In this document: positions 1,829 through 58,976 of the stretch, in pieces
Layout: each line of letters opens with the position of its first letter
How positions within the stretch are numbered: position 1 is the first letter of the stretch
NCBI GenBank assembly: GCA_013151735.1
Contig: JAADHR010000199.1
Location: forward strand, 82,091 to 146,090
Source: Calditrichota bacterium
Lineage (GTDB): Bacteria > Zhuqueibacterota > JdFR-76 > BMS3Abin05
Reading direction: 5' to 3'
DNA length: 64,000 nt
The notes under the pieces: generated by a model
Told to the model about the DNA's origin: nothing
The model's input: only the letters and a program-made list of their open reading frames with translations
Databases searched by the model: none
Position numbers and translations under genes: made by a program

Positions 1829-1877
1829 GCTGCAACGAAGATAAATAACAAAAAGAAGTAAGGGCCCCGCTGTTCGC

Positions 1878-1948
1878 CGGTTGCTTCGACAGGCTCAGCA
1901 ACCGGTAAGGCCAAGGGCATTGAGCCTGTCGAAATGCCCGGAGTAAAA
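1878..1948 (+). repeat. 71-bp REP-like double-hairpin repeat, copy 1
   Basis: cggttgcttcgacaggctcagcaaccgg...gggcattgagcctgtcgaaatgcccggagtaaaa; 67/71 identical to 2280-2350 (counted by hand). Confidence 0.95.
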
Positions 1949-1960
1949 AGGTGAATGCCA

Positions 1961-2278
1961 ATGAGCAAAGGCTATATGTACATTCTGGAATGTGCGGATG
2001 GCACGTATTATACTGGCAGCACCAAGGATTTGGAAAGAAGACTGTGGGAGCATCAAAATTCGATCGGTGCTAATTATACGAAGAAAAGACTGCCGGTGAA
2101 ATTGGTTTACTATGAAGAATATAACAGAATTGACGAAGCATTTTATCGCGAAAAACAAGTGCAGGGCTGGAGTCGGAAAAAGAAACGGGCATTGATAGAA
2201 GAAAGGCAGCAGGATTTGCCTCTTTTATCCAAAAATTACACGCAGTTTGGAAAAACAGATACTGCAGAAAAGATGTAA
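1961..2278 (+). CDS. GIY-YIG nuclease family protein (small, UPF0213/YhbQ-like)
   Basis: GYMYILECADGTYYTGSTKDLERRLWEH...EAFYREKQVQGWSRKKKRALI has the GIY-YIG motif plus the catalytic Arg and Glu. Alternative start at 1955. Confidence 0.92.
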   Translation: MSKGYMYILECADGTYYTGSTKDLERRLWEHQNSIGANYTKKRLPVKLVYYEEYNRIDEAFYREKQVQGWSRKKKRALIEERQQDLPLLSKNYTQFGKTDTAEKM

Positions 2279-2279
2279 G

Positions 2280-2350
2280 CGGTTGCTTCGACAGGCTCAG
2301 CAACCGGCGAGGCTAAGGGCATTGAGCTTGTCGAAATGCCCGGAGTAAAA
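2280..2350 (+). repeat. 71-bp REP-like double-hairpin repeat, copy 2
   Basis: Direct repeat of 1878-1948 with 4 mismatches, starting 2 nt after the GIY-YIG stop codon. Confidence 0.95.
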
Positions 2351-2448: not shown

Positions 2449-2877
2449 ATGAAAAACACGATTCCTCGGTACCAATTTTTCGAACACACCGGCGATATGG
2501 GGCTGGAGGTTCTGGCCTCTTCGCTGAATGAACTGTTCGAATGGGCCGCCCGCGGCCTGACGGCTGTCCTGACGGAGCCCGAAACCGTTCAGCCGAAAGC
2601 GGAGCGGAACTTTTCACTCCGGGCTGATCAGTTAGACGAATTGCTCATTCGGTGGCTGAACCGGTTGAATTTCGAGTTTGAAACGGAGGGCTGGCTGTTT
2701 GCCGAGTTTCGGGTGCAGGTGAAGGAGGATTTTTCCCTGCACGCCGCAGCGCGCGGGGAACCTTTCGACCCCCAGCGGCATGAAATTCTTCGGGAGATTA
2801 AAGCGGCGACCTACCACCAATTGGTGGTAGAAAAGCGTGATGGGGTTTGGTACGCGCGTATCATTTTCGATCTTTAG
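2449..2877 (+). CDS. archease
   Basis: N-terminal EHTGD and C-terminal EIKAATYHQL...ARIIFDL archease motifs; sits directly upstream of rtcB. Confidence 0.95.
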   Translation: MKNTIPRYQFFEHTGDMGLEVLASSLNELFEWAARGLTAVLTEPETVQPKAERNFSLRADQLDELLIRWLNRLNFEFETEGWLFAEFRVQVKEDFSLHAAARGEPFDPQRHEILREIKAATYHQLVVEKRDGVWYARIIFDL

Positions 2878-2906
2878 ATTGGGTCCCAGTTAAATCTTAA
2901 ATCCAG

Positions 2907-2936
2907 CCTTGCGAAGGTTTCAAAACCTTCGCAAGG
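2907..2936. repeat. perfect 14-bp-arm palindrome (REP-like) between archease and rtcB
   Basis: ccttgcgaaggttt-ca-aaaccttcgcaagg. Confidence 0.85.
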
Positions 2937-2967
2937 TTGATCATTCGCGCAAAAAAGGAGGAGAACG

Positions 2968-4401
2968 ATGGAATTCAAGAAAATCCGCGATTACGTCTGG
3001 GAGATCCCCCGCGAGGGGAAAATGCGGGTTCCCGGGCGGATTTACGCCTCTGAGAAAATGCTGCGCGAGATTCAATCGGACGAGAGTCCGAAACAGGTCA
3101 TGAATGTGGCGCATCTTCCGGGAATCGTAAAATACTCGCTGGCCATGCCGGACATCCACTGGGGCTACGGATTTCCCATCGGTGGGGTGGCCGCTTTTGA
3201 CGTGAAGAACGGTATCATTTCGCCCGGCGGCGTGGGGTACGACATCAACTGCGGCGTGCGTCTGCTGCGTTCCAATCTCACCCGCGAAGATGTGCAGCCC
3301 AAAATTCGTGATCTGGTGGCTGCCATTTTTGCCCGTGTGCCCTCCGGGGTGGGGTCTAAAGGGCCGCTTAAACTGAGCGATTCAGATGGGCGTAACGTAC
3401 TGGTGAAGGGTGCGCGTTGGGCGGTTGAAAAAGGTTTTGGTTCGGAAGACGATCTGGAGTTCATTGAAGAGCACGGACAAATGCCTCACGCCGACCCAGC
3501 AGCCGTGAGTGCTGAAGCCTACACGCGCGGCCGCCCTCAACTGGGCACCATCGGTTCCGGTAATCACTTTGTGGAAGTGGATGTGGTGGACGAGATCTAC
3601 GACGAAACCGCTGCCCGGGCGTTTGGTCTGTTTCCGGGGCAAATTGCCGTTATTGTCCACACCGGTTCCCGGGGATTTGGCCACCAGGTGTGCGACGATT
3701 CCATTCGGAAAATGCTTCGGGCGTCGGAGAAATACGGCATCGATTTGCCGGATAAACAGTTGTGCTGTGCGCCGTTTCAATCCCCGGAAGGTCAGGAGTA
3801 TTTTGGAGCGATGAATGCAGCGATCAATTACGCCTTTGCGAACCGGCAGGTCATTTCCCAGTGGATTCGTGAAGCTTTCGAAATGGGGCTCGGCCTTTCG
3901 CCCCGCGACATTGGCCTCCAAACGGTGTACGAAGTGGCCCACAACATTGCCAAGCTGGAAACCCACATTGTGGACGGCCAAGAACGTGAATTGGTTGTTC
4001 ACCGGAAGGGAGCCACGCGTGCCTTTGGTCCGGGGCATCCGGCCGTGCCGGAGGCGTATCGGGATGTGGGACAGCCGGTTCTCATCCCCGGAGACATGGG
4101 GCGGTACTCCTTTGTTCTGGTGGGTACCCGGCAAGCTATGGAGGAAACGTTCGGCTCTTCCTGCCACGGAGCCGGTCGACGAATGAGCCGCCACCAGGCG
4201 AAAAAAACAGCAAAGGGGCGTGCCATTCACCGGGAGCTGGAGGACCGCGGCATCTATTCCATGGCGGCCAGCCGGGCAACGATGGTAGAAGAAATCCCGG
4301 AAGCCTACAAGGACGTAGCCGATGTGGTGGATGCGGTGGAAGGCGCGGGCATTGCCCGGAAAGTGGCCAAGTTGGTACCGATTGGCGTGGTTAAAGGATA
4401 A
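2968..4401 (+). CDS. rtcB: RtcB-family RNA ligase (3'-phosphate/5'-OH), archaeal/eukaryote-like subtype
   Basis: Motifs PDIHWGYGFPIG, GYDINCGVRL, GSGNHFVE, HTGSRG, HNIAK, HRKGATRA and SCHGAGR (guanylylated His) are all intact. Confidence 0.97.
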   Translation: MEFKKIRDYVWEIPREGKMRVPGRIYASEKMLREIQSDESPKQVMNVAHLPGIVKYSLAMPDIHWGYGFPIGGVAAFDVKNGIISPGGVGYDINCGVRLLRSNLTREDVQPKIRDLVAAIFARVPSGVGSKGPLKLSDSDGRNVLVKGARWAVEKGFGSEDDLEFIEEHGQMPHADPAAVSAEAYTRGRPQLGTIGSGNHFVEVDVVDEIYDETAARAFGLFPGQIAVIVHTGSRGFGHQVCDDSIRKMLRASEKYGIDLPDKQLCCAPFQSPEGQEYFGAMNAAINYAFANRQVISQWIREAFEMGLGLSPRDIGLQTVYEVAHNIAKLETHIVDGQERELVVHRKGATRAFGPGHPAVPEAYRDVGQPVLIPGDMGRYSFVLVGTRQAMEETFGSSCHGAGRRMSRHQAKKTAKGRAIHRELEDRGIYSMAASRATMVEEIPEAYKDVADVVDAVEGAGIARKVAKLVPIGVVKG

Positions 4402-4551
4402 GTGCGGTCTTTTGTAGAGGATAAAAACGGCCCGGCTTTTCTTCCGGAATTCAGCATGGGAAAGGGTTCACAACCCAAAAATGAAAAAAAATAGGACACC
4501 CCGGCTGTTAGGCGTTTCTGCAAAAATATTGTTGCAATCCCAAAATTTTTC

Positions 4552-4580
4552 TTGACATCTTTGGAAAATATTCTTACAAT
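4552..4580 (+). promoter_or_regulatory. sigma70-type promoter for ssb
   Basis: TTGACA (4552-4557), 17-bp spacer, TACAAT (4575-4580); AGGAGGG RBS at 4614-4620. Confidence 0.75.
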
Positions 4581-4625
4581 TGAATGTCATCTTGCATTTC
4601 ATTAAACCCAGTAAGGAGGGGAAAA

Positions 4626-5042
4626 ATGGCGAACGGAGTAAACAAAGTAATCCTAATTGGCAACCTTGGAAAAGACCCGGAATTGCGGTACACTCCCAAT
4701 GGAACCGCGGTGGCGAGTTTTAGCATCGCGACCAATGAGCGCTGGAAAGACAAAGAGGGAAATTTTCAGGATCACACAGAATGGCACCGCATTGTAGCCT
4801 GGCGGAAACTGGCAGAAACGGTTGGCGAGTACCTGAAAAAAGGCAGCCAGGTGTACATTGAGGGTCGACTCCGAACCCGGACCTGGGAAGATCAGAATGG
4901 AAACAAACGAACCACGACGGAAATTGTAGCTGATTCTTTGCAAATGCTGGGCAGGCGTGAAGGCGTTTCTTCTTCTGATGTGGCGGCGTCCCCCACGGCA
5001 TCGGATGACGAAATGGCCGCATCGGATGATTTACCATTTTGA
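4626..5042 (+). CDS. ssb: single-stranded DNA-binding protein
   Basis: [28 protein letters not shown] and acidic C-terminal DDLPF; ATG 4626 follows the RBS. Confidence 0.97.
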
Positions 5043-5068
5043 GTAAATGATGATCGCATTCCCAAAAG

Positions 5069-5101
5069 AATCCGAGGCTGATTAAACCTCGGATTTTTTT
5101 T
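5069..5101 (+). terminator. intrinsic terminator after ssb
   Basis: aatccgagg-9 nt loop-cctcggatt followed by a T-run. Confidence 0.75.
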
Positions 5102-5123
5102 GGCTGAAAAGAAAGAGGCTTTC

Positions 5124-5519
5124 ATGACACCAAAAAACTTGATCCAAAAAGCAAAAGACGCCCAAAAAGAAGCAATCGCACCCTATTCGAACTTTAATGT
5201 GGGCGCAGCTCTTTTGACTAAATCCGGTAAGGTTTACAGCGGCATTAACATCGAGTCCAGTTCGTACAGCCTGACCATTTGTGCCGAGCGTGTGGCCCTT
5301 TTCAAGGCCCTTTCAGAGGGGGAACGGGATTTTGATTCCATCGCAATTGTTACGGATGCCGATGAATTGTGTCCCCCGTGCGGGGCGTGCCGTCAGGTTT
5401 TGTGGGATTTTGCCCCGGACCTGAAAGTAATCCTGGCCAATAAAAAAGGGGATGTGAAAGAATACGAACTGCGGGAGTTGTTTCCCGCCGCATTTGATCA
5501 GAATTTTTTGGACCGATAA
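5124..5519 (+). CDS. cdd: cytidine deaminase (homotetrameric type)
   Basis: APYSNFNVGAAL, CAERVA and PCGACRQ zinc motifs. Confidence 0.95.
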   Translation: MTPKNLIQKAKDAQKEAIAPYSNFNVGAALLTKSGKVYSGINIESSSYSLTICAERVALFKALSEGERDFDSIAIVTDADELCPPCGACRQVLWDFAPDLKVILANKKGDVKEYELRELFPAAFDQNFLDR

Positions 5520-5535
5520 CCCATCAGAGGAAAAT

Positions 5536-6168
5536 GTGAAGAAACGAATTTTGATTGGAATTGCCGGGGGAACCGGCTCCGGAAAAACATTGGTTGCCAA
5601 AAACCTCTTTCGCGATTTGGGTTCCGATCGCGTGGTTATTCTTCAGCAAGACGCCTACTACAAAAACCTGTCTCATCTTCCGTTTGAGGAACGGGCCAAG
5701 CAAAATTTTGACCACCCGGATGCCATCGACTCCGACCTGCTGCTTCGTCATATAAAAGACCTGTTGGCCGGAAAAACGATTCAACAGCCCATTTACGACT
5801 TTACCATTCACCTGAGAAAAAACGAAACCCGGGAAATTGGCGGGCATGATATTATTATTTTGGAAGGCATTCTCATTCTTTACAATCCGGAACTCCGCAA
5901 TTTAATGGACATTAAAGTGTATGTGGACACCGATGCGGACATTCGGTTTATCCGGCGCCTTATGCGGGATACGAAAGAGCGCGGCCGCAGCATGGAATCG
6001 GTGGTTCGGCAATATAAAGAAAGCGTTCGCCCCATGCACCTTCAGTTTGTGGAGCCTACAAAGCGGTACGCCGACATCATTATTCCGGAAGGGGGAATGA
6101 ATTTTGTCGCCATTGATATTCTACGGGCAAAGATCGCCGCACTTTTAACAGAGTTGGAGGAAAAATAG
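5536..6168 (+). CDS. udk: uridine kinase
   Basis: IGIAGGTGSGKT P-loop, NFDHPDA, IIILEGIL and FVEPTKRYADIIIP; probable GTG start at 5536. Confidence 0.95.
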   Translation: MKKRILIGIAGGTGSGKTLVAKNLFRDLGSDRVVILQQDAYYKNLSHLPFEERAKQNFDHPDAIDSDLLLRHIKDLLAGKTIQQPIYDFTIHLRKNETREIGGHDIIILEGILILYNPELRNLMDIKVYVDTDADIRFIRRLMRDTKERGRSMESVVRQYKESVRPMHLQFVEPTKRYADIIIPEGGMNFVAIDILRAKIAALLTELEEK

Positions 6169-57260: not shown

Positions 57261-58976
57261 ATGATGGGCAGACGTTTACATTTTACATCCAGGACAACCG
57301 TTTTCGGAATGGATTGGGGACATCACTCTGTAAAAGTGGTCGGTCTGCAAAAGAAAGGCGGCACATTCAGGTTAACCCACTGTGCTGTTTTTACCGTGCC
57401 CTCCGATAAAGAGAGTGTTTCTGTTGAGGAAAAGATTGCTCAAAAAATAGATGCCTGGCATGGAAGGGACGCGGCTATCGTTGTTGGTGTGGGTGGAAAC
57501 GATGTGATTGCCCGCTATATAAAATTGCCGGATATGCCTGAAGGAGAGTTTCGAAAAGCAGCGCTCTGGGAGGTCCGCGATCAATTATATTTTGGGGTGG
57601 AAGACGCAATATTGTGGGCGGATTACCTGGGGAAGATTACGGAAGGAGCGGTGAAAAAAACACACGGTGTGGTTTATGCCGTTCGAAAAAGCGCGGTCTT
57701 CGACAGACTGCGGAACCACCAAAAATCCACCTTACAGCCCCGGATGATTGTTCTCTCGGCGGAAGCCGATCGTCTGGCCTGGCACCGTCATACAAAAGAG
57801 CCCGTTCTGCTCCTGAATATCGGATATTCACGGACCCAAATTTCAATTGTCCGGCAGAGGAAGGTTGTTTTTCTTCGGGATGTTAATTTTGGCACCGGGC
57901 AAATTCAGACTGAGATTTCCTCAAATCTGGGAATTTCTGACCGCGAAGCGGAATCGGTTATGAAGCGGATTCGTTTGGAAAACGGTGTAATCACGCTTCC
58001 CGGCTCATCATATTCCAAGCAGGATATGGAATTTCTATTTCATTTTATTGAGATAGCCCTTGAACCTCTGGTCGATGAAATTCAATTATCGCTGCAATTT
58101 TTTTCAAGCCAGCTTCACGAGAGTGTAATAGAGATCAGTTTGCTGGGTGGAGGAGCGCTGATAAGCGGCTTTAAGCCGTATCTGGAAGACAAAATTGGTT
58201 TGCCGGTTGATATTAATAATCCGTTTCAATCCATTGAAATAGATGAAAATGATTTTGACAGAGAGTCGCTTTATAAAATAGCATCCCTTTTTTCCACAGC
58301 CGTTGGTTTGGCCAAGAGCCGGTTTGCGTCAAATAAACAGTCTCTCAACCTGTTGGAAATTATTAAAGAAAAGGAAAAAACCGAGAGAAAAAAGGGTGCC
58401 GCTTTCCGAATCGCATCGTTGTCTGCAGTCCTTTTTATATTGATTCTTGGATTTTTCTTTTCTCAAAAAACAACAGCCCTGCAGAACAAAAAGATTGTTC
58501 TGGATGCAAAATACAAAGCAATTCAAAATCGTTTGAAATTATTGAAAGAGCTGGAGGAAAAAACCGGATTACTGAGCTCAAAGTTCAAAACATTACTGGA
58601 GATTAAGGGAGAGCAGCCGCGCTGGTCCATTATTCTGAAATCTCTGGGACGCACGCTTCCGGAAGGCACGTGGATTACGGATTTTAAGGGGGCACGTGCA
58701 GAGCAAACAGACACTGCGGGAGGCGATCCGGATAGTCCCGAAGAAGAAACGGATGCGGCCTATTGGCAATTGAGCCTCAAGGGGAGATCCTTTTCAGGGG
58801 CAAACGTGCGGATTTTTTACAATCAATTGCAGAACATGCCCTATTTTTCGGATGTCATCATTACCCGCATCGCCCGTGCGGAAAACGAGCAGGCCGATAA
58901 TCTCCTTGAATTTGAGATCAACTGTCAAATGGCAAAGAATTTTAGTCAGACCGTACAGGCAAGAGATGAACATTAA
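57261..58976 (+). CDS. fused PilM-PilN alignment protein
   Basis: N-terminal PilM (FGMDWGHHSVK, LNIG, LLGGGA, INNPF, AVGLA), then TM, coiled coil and PilN (LPEGTWIT, LKGRS, MPYFSDV) in one frame. Confidence 0.88.
   Translation: MMGRRLHFTSRTTVFGMDWGHHSVKVVGLQKKGGTFRLTHCAVFTVPSDKESVSVEEKIAQKIDAWHGRDAAIVVGVGGNDVIARYIKLPDMPEGEFRKAALWEVRDQLYFGVEDAILWADYLGKITEGAVKKTHGVVYAVRKSAVFDRLRNHQKSTLQPRMIVLSAEADRLAWHRHTKEPVLLLNIGYSRTQISIVRQRKVVFLRDVNFGTGQIQTEISSNLGISDREAESVMKRIRLENGVITLPGSSYSKQDMEFLFHFIEIALEPLVDEIQLSLQFFSSQLHESVIEISLLGGGALISGFKPYLEDKIGLPVDINNPFQSIEIDENDFDRESLYKIASLFSTAVGLAKSRFASNKQSLNLLEIIKEKEKTERKKGAAFRIASLSAVLFILILGFFFSQKTTALQNKKIVLDAKYKAIQNRLKLLKELEEKTGLLSSKFKTLLEIKGEQPRWSIILKSLGRTLPEGTWITDFKGARAEQTDTAGGDPDSPEEETDAAYWQLSLKGRSFSGANVRIFYNQLQNMPYFSDVIITRIARAENEQADNLLEFEINCQMAKNFSQTVQARDEH

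Follow-up and report, generated by a model that had tools for sequence, protein, structure and literature searches.

The closest described counterpart of the locus reported here is the Ssn system. SsnA of Neisseria meningitidis is a 94-aa single-domain GIY-YIG protein (CDD cd10448, GIY-YIG_unchar_3) which cuts single-stranded DNA (ssDNA) only, beside the NTS hairpin, and is inactive on RNA (PMC11893778). Three further Ssn homologues were found to be ssDNA-specific endonucleases cutting beside their own flanking repeats, and the system is widespread among the phyla, with SRM present near 71% of the ssn homologues and on both sides of the gene in 42% (PMC11893778). Chenal et al. (2025) drew an explicit parallel between the NTS-ssnA-NTS arrangement and both insertion sequences and REP/RAYT systems (PMC11893778). 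Another relevant group is that of the CGTC-tagged REPs, extragenic palindromes of several phyla with 8-9 bp stems and 4-5 nt loops, which occur as head-to-head dimers and for which no dedicated transposase was known then (Di Nocera et al. 2013, PMC3733652). In our study, gonococcal ssnA was recovered among nine NTS of alternating orientation, and a canonical SRM-ssn-SRM cassette of Azospirillum lipoferum AZO_p3 (1376-1857 of locus L240), with two alternating SRM on each side of the gene, was found between sufB and sufC of a suf operon, a clear case of such a cassette in an operon spacer.

A related arrangement is present in the window, i.e. the whole 64-kb stretch of DNA which was analysed. 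The locus is best explained, with a probability of about 0.6, as an Ssn-type nuclease-hairpin module, in which a GIY-YIG endonuclease gene lies within a short array of its own cognate hairpins. The parts of the locus are given below, with the strand in brackets and the scores of the covariance model R1 in bits.

1877-1905 (+): hairpin module 1; loop TTCGACAGGCTCA at 1885-1897 (+ strand), stem CCGGTTGC/GCAACCGG, R1 39.5 bits
1878-1948 (+): direct repeat copy 1, a hairpin doublet plus the GGAGTAAAA tail, from the repeat search
1915-1939 (-): hairpin module 2, inverted; loop TGAGCCTGTCGAA at 1921-1933 (+ strand), stem GGGCAT/ATGCCC, R1 31 bits on the - strand
1949-1954 (+): likely Shine-Dalgarno AGGTGA, 6 nt 5' of the ATG, read off the sequence
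1961-2278 (+): ORF of a single-domain GIY-YIG nuclease of 105 aa, Ssn-like/UPF0213-like, from Pfam, PDB and alignment
2280-2306 (+): hairpin module 3; loop TTCGACAGGCTCA at 2287-2299, stem CGGTTGC/GCAACCG, R1 39.7 bits
2280-2350 (+): direct repeat copy 2, from the repeat search
2317-2341 (-): hairpin module 4, inverted; loop TGAGCTTGTCGAA at 2323-2335 (+ strand), stem GGGCAT/ATGCCC, R1 31 bits
2372-2402 (+): degenerate fifth module, TTTGGCAAGCTCA, with a weak stem and no stable fold, R1 18.4 bits (E about 0.02)

The initial annotation had described 71-bp direct repeats bracketing a GIY-YIG ORF, and the repeat search over the 64-kb window recovered the same pair, 67/71 identical (94%) and starting 402 nt apart. 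Between the end of copy 1 and the ATG at 1961 are 12 nt, of which 1949-1954 form the AGGTGA Shine-Dalgarno, and copy 2 starts one base past the TAA stop (2276-2278). This start codon is backed by the Shine-Dalgarno and by the MSKGYMYIL N-terminus, which is conserved among the homologues. With the covariance model and pattern taken together, the gene is bracketed by two hairpin modules on the 5' side and three on the 3' side. An unfiltered R1 scan of the entire 64 kb gave the four modules, at 31-40 bits, and the degenerate fifth, with no other credible copy; a borderline match at 57690-57714 was rejected, as it covers only part of the loop and has no proper hairpin. Moreover, the 13-mer core at 0-1 mismatch gave four matches in the window, every one at the nuclease locus, and with up to two mismatches it gave six against 1.26 expected, a count reached in 0 of 100 shuffles; chance does not account for the pair.

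Structurally, the 71-nt repeat is made up of two hairpin modules facing opposite ways rather than of a single palindrome, and the alternating orientation of the modules gives REPIN-like doublets. The 13-nt loop (TGAGCYTGTCGAA / TTCGACARGCTCA) is conserved and the stems of 3-8 bp covary freely. Single modules fold as ssDNA at about -6 to -10 kcal/mol (module 1, -9.9 with z -3.9; module 2, -6.3; module 3, -8.2), and in an alternative ssDNA fold of the doublet (-19.3 kcal/mol) the two loops pair as a 13-bp duplex, which gives a single long hairpin. In 80 related loci, 93 of 106 core occurrences are closed by at least three Watson-Crick pairs, as is the case for about 2% of random positions, and 38 distinct stems were counted among these occurrences. 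The pairing and covariation test was made on a gap-free alignment of 94 distinct modules, where 73% of cells were paired as compared to 45% after shuffling and 25-36% when the register was slid. Pairing reached 95-98% at the three positions next to the loop, each with 3-6 pair types, and the covariation score was 0.655 against 0.19, a value reached in 0 of 500 shuffles.

Loci without the exact 13-mer bear related loops, either TGAGCGRAGTCGAA or TGAGT-(inner hairpin)-GTATCGAR. At the gathering threshold, Rfam returned only tRNAs and noise for the window and 20 related loci, and with E up to 10 on 1700-2600 no family match beyond noise was obtained. A 'COG2827 RNA motif' found no confirmation in the Rfam matches or in the paper text, and the searchable literature gave no relevant match to the loop sequence. 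The hairpin type differs from the published Ssn hairpins and is apparently undescribed so far. A tandem array of doublets with a period of about 183 nt was observed in Lacihabitans soyangensis (L075, 1118-1908), directly 3' of the GIY-YIG gene; the end of L076 is identical to the start of L075 over 1147 nt, and hence these two are probably one locus split at the array.

The ORF at 1961-2278 matches the Pfam GIY-YIG family (PF01541, E=1.2e-17) over residues 3-75, and this is the only domain in the 105 aa. The active site is intact, as had been read earlier from the catalytic residues, since Y7, Y17, G19, R27, H31 and E64 are all invariant in a 14-sequence alignment including SsnA and UPF0213 proteins. 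The best matches among solved structures are the UPF0213 proteins BH0048 (PDB 1zg2) and EF2693 (PDB 1ywl), with E=1.5e-14. Identity is 36% to gonococcal SsnA as against 44% to BH0048, and UPF0213 scores slightly better. In pairwise comparison with the window protein, the Methylobacterium and Sphingomonas homologues score 74-95 bits, canonical Ssn 50-72 bits and UPF0213 53-65 bits. Judged by these scores, the clade including the Methylobacterium and Sphingomonas homologues appears as a separate cluster, roughly equidistant from Ssn and UPF0213. At about 50 bits to SsnA, the protein would by our estimate probably miss the whole-genome tblastn homologue cut-off (E<1e-10) of Chenal et al. The score for TIGR01453 was 21 bits against a cut-off of 56, and no match was found among the PADLOC defence systems or the PHROG phage families.

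Homologues of 50-90% identity were found in Calditrichota/KSB1-like MAGs, Ignavibacteriota, Bacteroidota, Chloroflexota, Cyanobacteria and Geobacteraceae, and further ones in Methylococcales, Rickettsiales, Spirochaetota, Cloacimonadota, CPR and others; the Sphingomonas homologue is flanked by type-B hairpins. Many of the homologue gene calls (P0003-P0120) are 130-180 aa long instead of about 100. One of them, P0094, ends in '...PEPVEG', which is an in-frame hairpin loop, so at least some of the over-long calls look like read-through into stop-free arrays.

The association between gene and hairpin was examined from both sides. The gene-first set had 80 relatives from many phyla at 50-90% identity, which makes 81 loci with the window, and ORF-flanking direct repeats are present in about 50 of the 80 homologue loci. 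The initial annotation had raised the question of an enrichment of this GIY-YIG clade next to such repeats, and it is borne out: with a generalised loop pattern over the 81 loci, 147 modules were counted at up to 600 nt from the gene and 17 in the 262 kb beyond 1 kb, an approximately 19-fold higher density. Exactly one of three related loop types occurs within 450 nt in 68 of the 81 loci (84%), and mixed loci were not found among them. The hairpin type is the same in the nearest protein neighbour in 60 of these 68 cases, an excess reached in 0 of 2000 permutations; the hairpin type thus tracks the protein tree, and some of this correlation could arise from physical linkage alone.

The hairpin-first set, collected with the doublet pattern, had 30 viral and at least 120 metagenomic loci. 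Among the matches listed, a GIY-YIG gene lies within 600 nt of the doublet in 7 of 150 loci (about 5%), which is a weak adjacency, yet a strong enrichment over the base rate of a gene present 1-3 times per genome; the other 95% of the listed doublets have no adjacent nuclease gene, and additional modules more than 1 kb off are present in 23 of the 150. Since most doublets lie away from the gene, the hairpin is a dispersed REP-like element for which the nuclease gene is one privileged location. [quoted passage not shown] No RAYT, transposase-like or other enzyme family recurs beside the 150 doublet loci among the matches listed. The earlier proposal of a REP-like element serviced by a GIY-YIG nuclease instead of a RAYT is therefore supported in its association, by the density, the 68 of 81 loci and the lack of a nearby RAYT; as a concept it is not new, since REP-like repeats with a GIY-YIG partner have already been published for Ssn (PMC11893778).

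The 30 viral contigs (L084-L113, IMG/VR; e.g. L102, L103 and L105) carry the doublet with GIY-YIG not adjacent. Several of the doublet-bearing viral contigs have high-GC head-gene clusters of the HK97/GTA type, judging by ORF translations alone. In a Methylomonas MAG (L049), a canonical NTS-like hairpin, CGTCATTCCCGCGAAGACGGGAATCCAT, is present at 4136-4163, about 0.9 kb from a clade gene with type-B hairpins, so both hairpin families occur in one locus.

The boundaries of the cassette can be seen by comparison with its closest relative, L001, in which the protein is 90% identical (93% at the nucleotide level) and the upstream gene is different. Nucleotide homology with the window starts at the upstream GGGCAT hairpin (module 2) and stops past module 4 and its GGAGTAAAA tail, at about 2356; the flanks are unrelated, and no window orthologues were found among the neighbouring genes of L001. 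The initial annotation had derived the direct repeats from insertion of a repeat-plus-ORF circle into a resident repeat. This reading is not supported: L001 has one module upstream, without the CGGTTGC module, and an expanded set with extra partial modules downstream, and the enzyme is a hydrolase without strand-joining chemistry. As the module set of L001 differs, the 402-bp unit is not a conserved unit, and a better description of the flanking repeats is that of adjacent members of an array of alternately oriented hairpins, as around gonococcal ssnA.

These observations also bear on the first alternative, an autonomous selfish cassette, which is a close variant of the Ssn-type explanation. 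Here the hairpins would be the own ends or targets of a minimal mobile element rather than a host-serving population, and the element would spread either by homing or recombination into resident arrays, initiated by the nuclease, or as a repeat-plus-ORF circle which is excised and reinserted. We regard this reading as possible and rather doubtful. The same block is found in unrelated contexts at 93% nucleotide identity, as in L001, and paralogues inside single MAGs (L017/L043 and L022/L025) share the cassette only, with the 93-94% identity confined to the hairpin and gene block; the same holds for L065/L068 from different MAGs. The nuclease keeps 60-90% identity across many phyla, whereas the methyltransferase adjoining it upstream has no relative more than 63% identical. 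The canonical ssn cassette wedged between sufB and sufC and the restriction of the hairpins to the surroundings of the gene in the 64-kb window also favour mobility.

On the other hand, the gene is syntenic in six locus groups (L041/L048/L055/L057/L058; L027/L032/L033; L045/L047; L059/L061; L062/L063/L066/L067; L077/L080) though the flanks have diverged to 78-92% nucleotide identity, which indicates long vertical persistence, RAYT-like, in some lineages. With copies in unrelated contexts as well as syntenic groups, both movement and long vertical persistence occur. GIY-YIG enzymes hydrolyse DNA and cannot rejoin strands, hence transposition would depend on host repair, and the cassette has no fixed ends because the number and order of the flanking modules differ between close copies. 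The empty site (single repeat) suggested earlier was sought by matching both flanks of the gene-bearing loci against all fetched loci, and each two-flank match carried the gene, so no empty site, solo-repeat allele or circle was found among the loci compared. The upstream methyltransferase gave no comparable empty-site junction either, since even its best relatives reach about 63% identity only, with other genes downstream in each. Both GIY-YIG cassettes of Melioribacter sp. Ez-97 adjoin a 2.1-kb repeat (approximate length; 85.5% identity; L022, 3320-5447, and L025, 834-2964), which lies downstream of one and upstream of the other.

Downstream of the cassette in the window are the genes of archease (2449-2877) and RtcB (2968-4401), as identified by Pfam, followed by ORFs whose translations resemble a single-strand-binding protein (4584-5042), a cytidine deaminase (5100-5519) and a uridine kinase (5494-6168). 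This neighbourhood (2449-6168) is not tied to the cassette, as the neighbours differ in every other GIY-YIG locus; for the same reason a link to archease-RtcB RNA repair, considered because the loop begins with TTCGA like a tRNA T-loop, was ruled out. The spacer between the archease gene and rtcB contains a near-perfect palindrome at 2904-2939 (CAGCCTTGCGAAGGTTT / AAACCTTCGCAAGGTTG), with 17-nt arms, 94% complementary, and a 2-nt gap.

It is unlikely that the hairpins act at the RNA level, as 5'-UTR regulators, terminators or mRNA stabilisers in the transcript, with the protein not being their partner. In its favour, the distance from a module to the start codon is often 1-30 nt, and that from the stop codon to the next module 1-40 nt; the doublet also has a stable RNA fold (z -3.6), and mRNA stabilisation by REP-type hairpins is known (PMC3733652). 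However, with respect to the gene the modules point either way equally often (74 against 73), which fits a DNA-level element, and the hairpins have no T-tract, with none called in the terminator scan. The window and the 20 related loci gave no Rfam match, and the SsnA enzyme is inactive on RNA. Moreover, generic stabilisers would leave unexplained a cross-phylum 13-nt loop which travels with one nuclease clade. A mere coincidence, in which an abundant generic REP family has accumulated beside a housekeeping UPF0213-type repair nuclease, is very improbable: the doublet is indeed very common in metagenomes (at least 120 loci) and 95% of its listed copies are without the gene, but all five modules of the 64-kb window are at the gene, the modules are about 19 times denser near it over 81 loci, the three loop types segregate with the protein subclades without mixed loci, and hairpins of this kind are absent from true UPF0213 genes like yazA.

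In the Ssn-type explanation, the protein would most likely bind the hairpin when it is exposed in single-stranded DNA, during replication, transformation or conjugation, and would most likely cut at or near it, by analogy with SsnA. The free-to-vary stem would serve to present the conserved 13-nt loop, so that recognition may be based on the loop; as the loop is dispensable in NTS, it is uncertain whether the recognition mode of SsnA can be transferred to this protein. The gene and hairpin block of about 450 bp acts as a compact cassette: copies have moved into other contexts and genomes, and inheritance is stable in several lineages, as with RAYTs and their REPINs. As a tentative extension, the clade with its TGAGC...GTCGAA-loop hairpins may constitute a second, independently specified partnership reading a single-stranded loop instead of a stem and tag. 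Its block of about 450 bp would then rank with the smallest bacterial units that move autonomously, and it would spread between phyla and give rise to REP-like hairpin populations; the protein could represent a new programmable specificity class of ssDNA endonuclease; we consider this stronger proposal speculative.

The discovery of Ssn (2025) paired long-orphaned repeats (CGTC-tagged REPs and dRS3/NTS) with a tiny ssDNA-specific nuclease, and the present locus suggests the same logic for a second, very widespread hairpin superfamily, found in Bacteroidota, Ignavibacteriota, Chloroflexota, Cyanobacteria, Desulfuromonadota, Proteobacteria, CPR and viral contigs. At present this superfamily surfaces only as spurious reading frames, such as the '...PEPVEG' tail. 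If the protein cuts these hairpins, another large population of unexplained bacterial repeats would be accounted for, and a loop-reading class of practical interest would join the few known site-specific ssDNA nucleases. The pair would also be a tractable one for studying the spread and domestication of small nuclease-repeat modules.

In comparison to other known systems, the window protein differs from the I-TevI-type homing endonucleases in having no separate C-terminal DNA-binding domain. [quoted passage not shown] The UPF0213/COG2827 proteins have the same size and the same single-domain fold. However, B. subtilis yazA belongs to the conserved operon trmNF-yazA-rsmI, where a search with the three loop-type patterns revealed no hairpin, whereas the window gene is repeat-flanked and the contexts vary among its close homologues. 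With the CGTC-tagged REPs there is a resemblance in the Bacteroidota subfamily, whose hairpins bear a TGTCA tag by the stem, reminiscent of CGTC/TGTC, whereas the window copies are without the tag.

The likeness to the REPIN-RAYT systems lies in the short dispersed hairpins, the inverted doublets and a usually single-copy partner gene which is itself repeat-flanked and, in some lineages, vertically inherited. REPIN-like dispersed doublets were found at 150 independent loci among the matches listed, and in the 64-kb window only at the gene. The partner here is a GIY-YIG hydrolase rather than a HUH/Y1 (TnpA_REP) tyrosine transposase, and hence it is without covalent strand-transfer chemistry. 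Further, the loop is common to several phyla, whereas REPs are typically lineage-specific.

The likeness to Ssn is the most extensive. Both have a small GIY-YIG protein, about 95-105 aa in one domain and with its active site intact, whose gene lies between hairpins of alternating orientation, and dispersed copies of these hairpins also exist. The gene is flanked 5' and 3' by hairpin-forming inverted repeats within the 20-50 nt range used for Ssn, and this is general in the clade. The SRM consensus (HGTCWYN(0-2)YYVSBRHN(0-5)WNVSBRGN(0-2)RNCYNB) was matched nowhere in the window, nor next to the gene in any of the loci L001-L080, whereas the same regular expression gave nine matches in the gonococcal locus and four in Azospirillum. 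NTS keeps an 8-bp stem and a 5' CGTC tag and its 4-5 nt loop is dispensable; on the other hand, the window clade keeps a loop of 13-14 nt and its stem is free to vary, i.e. the conservation is reversed. Hence, what appears to be new in the present locus, as compared to the Ssn system, is the hairpin class, the reversed conservation pattern and the distinct protein clade.
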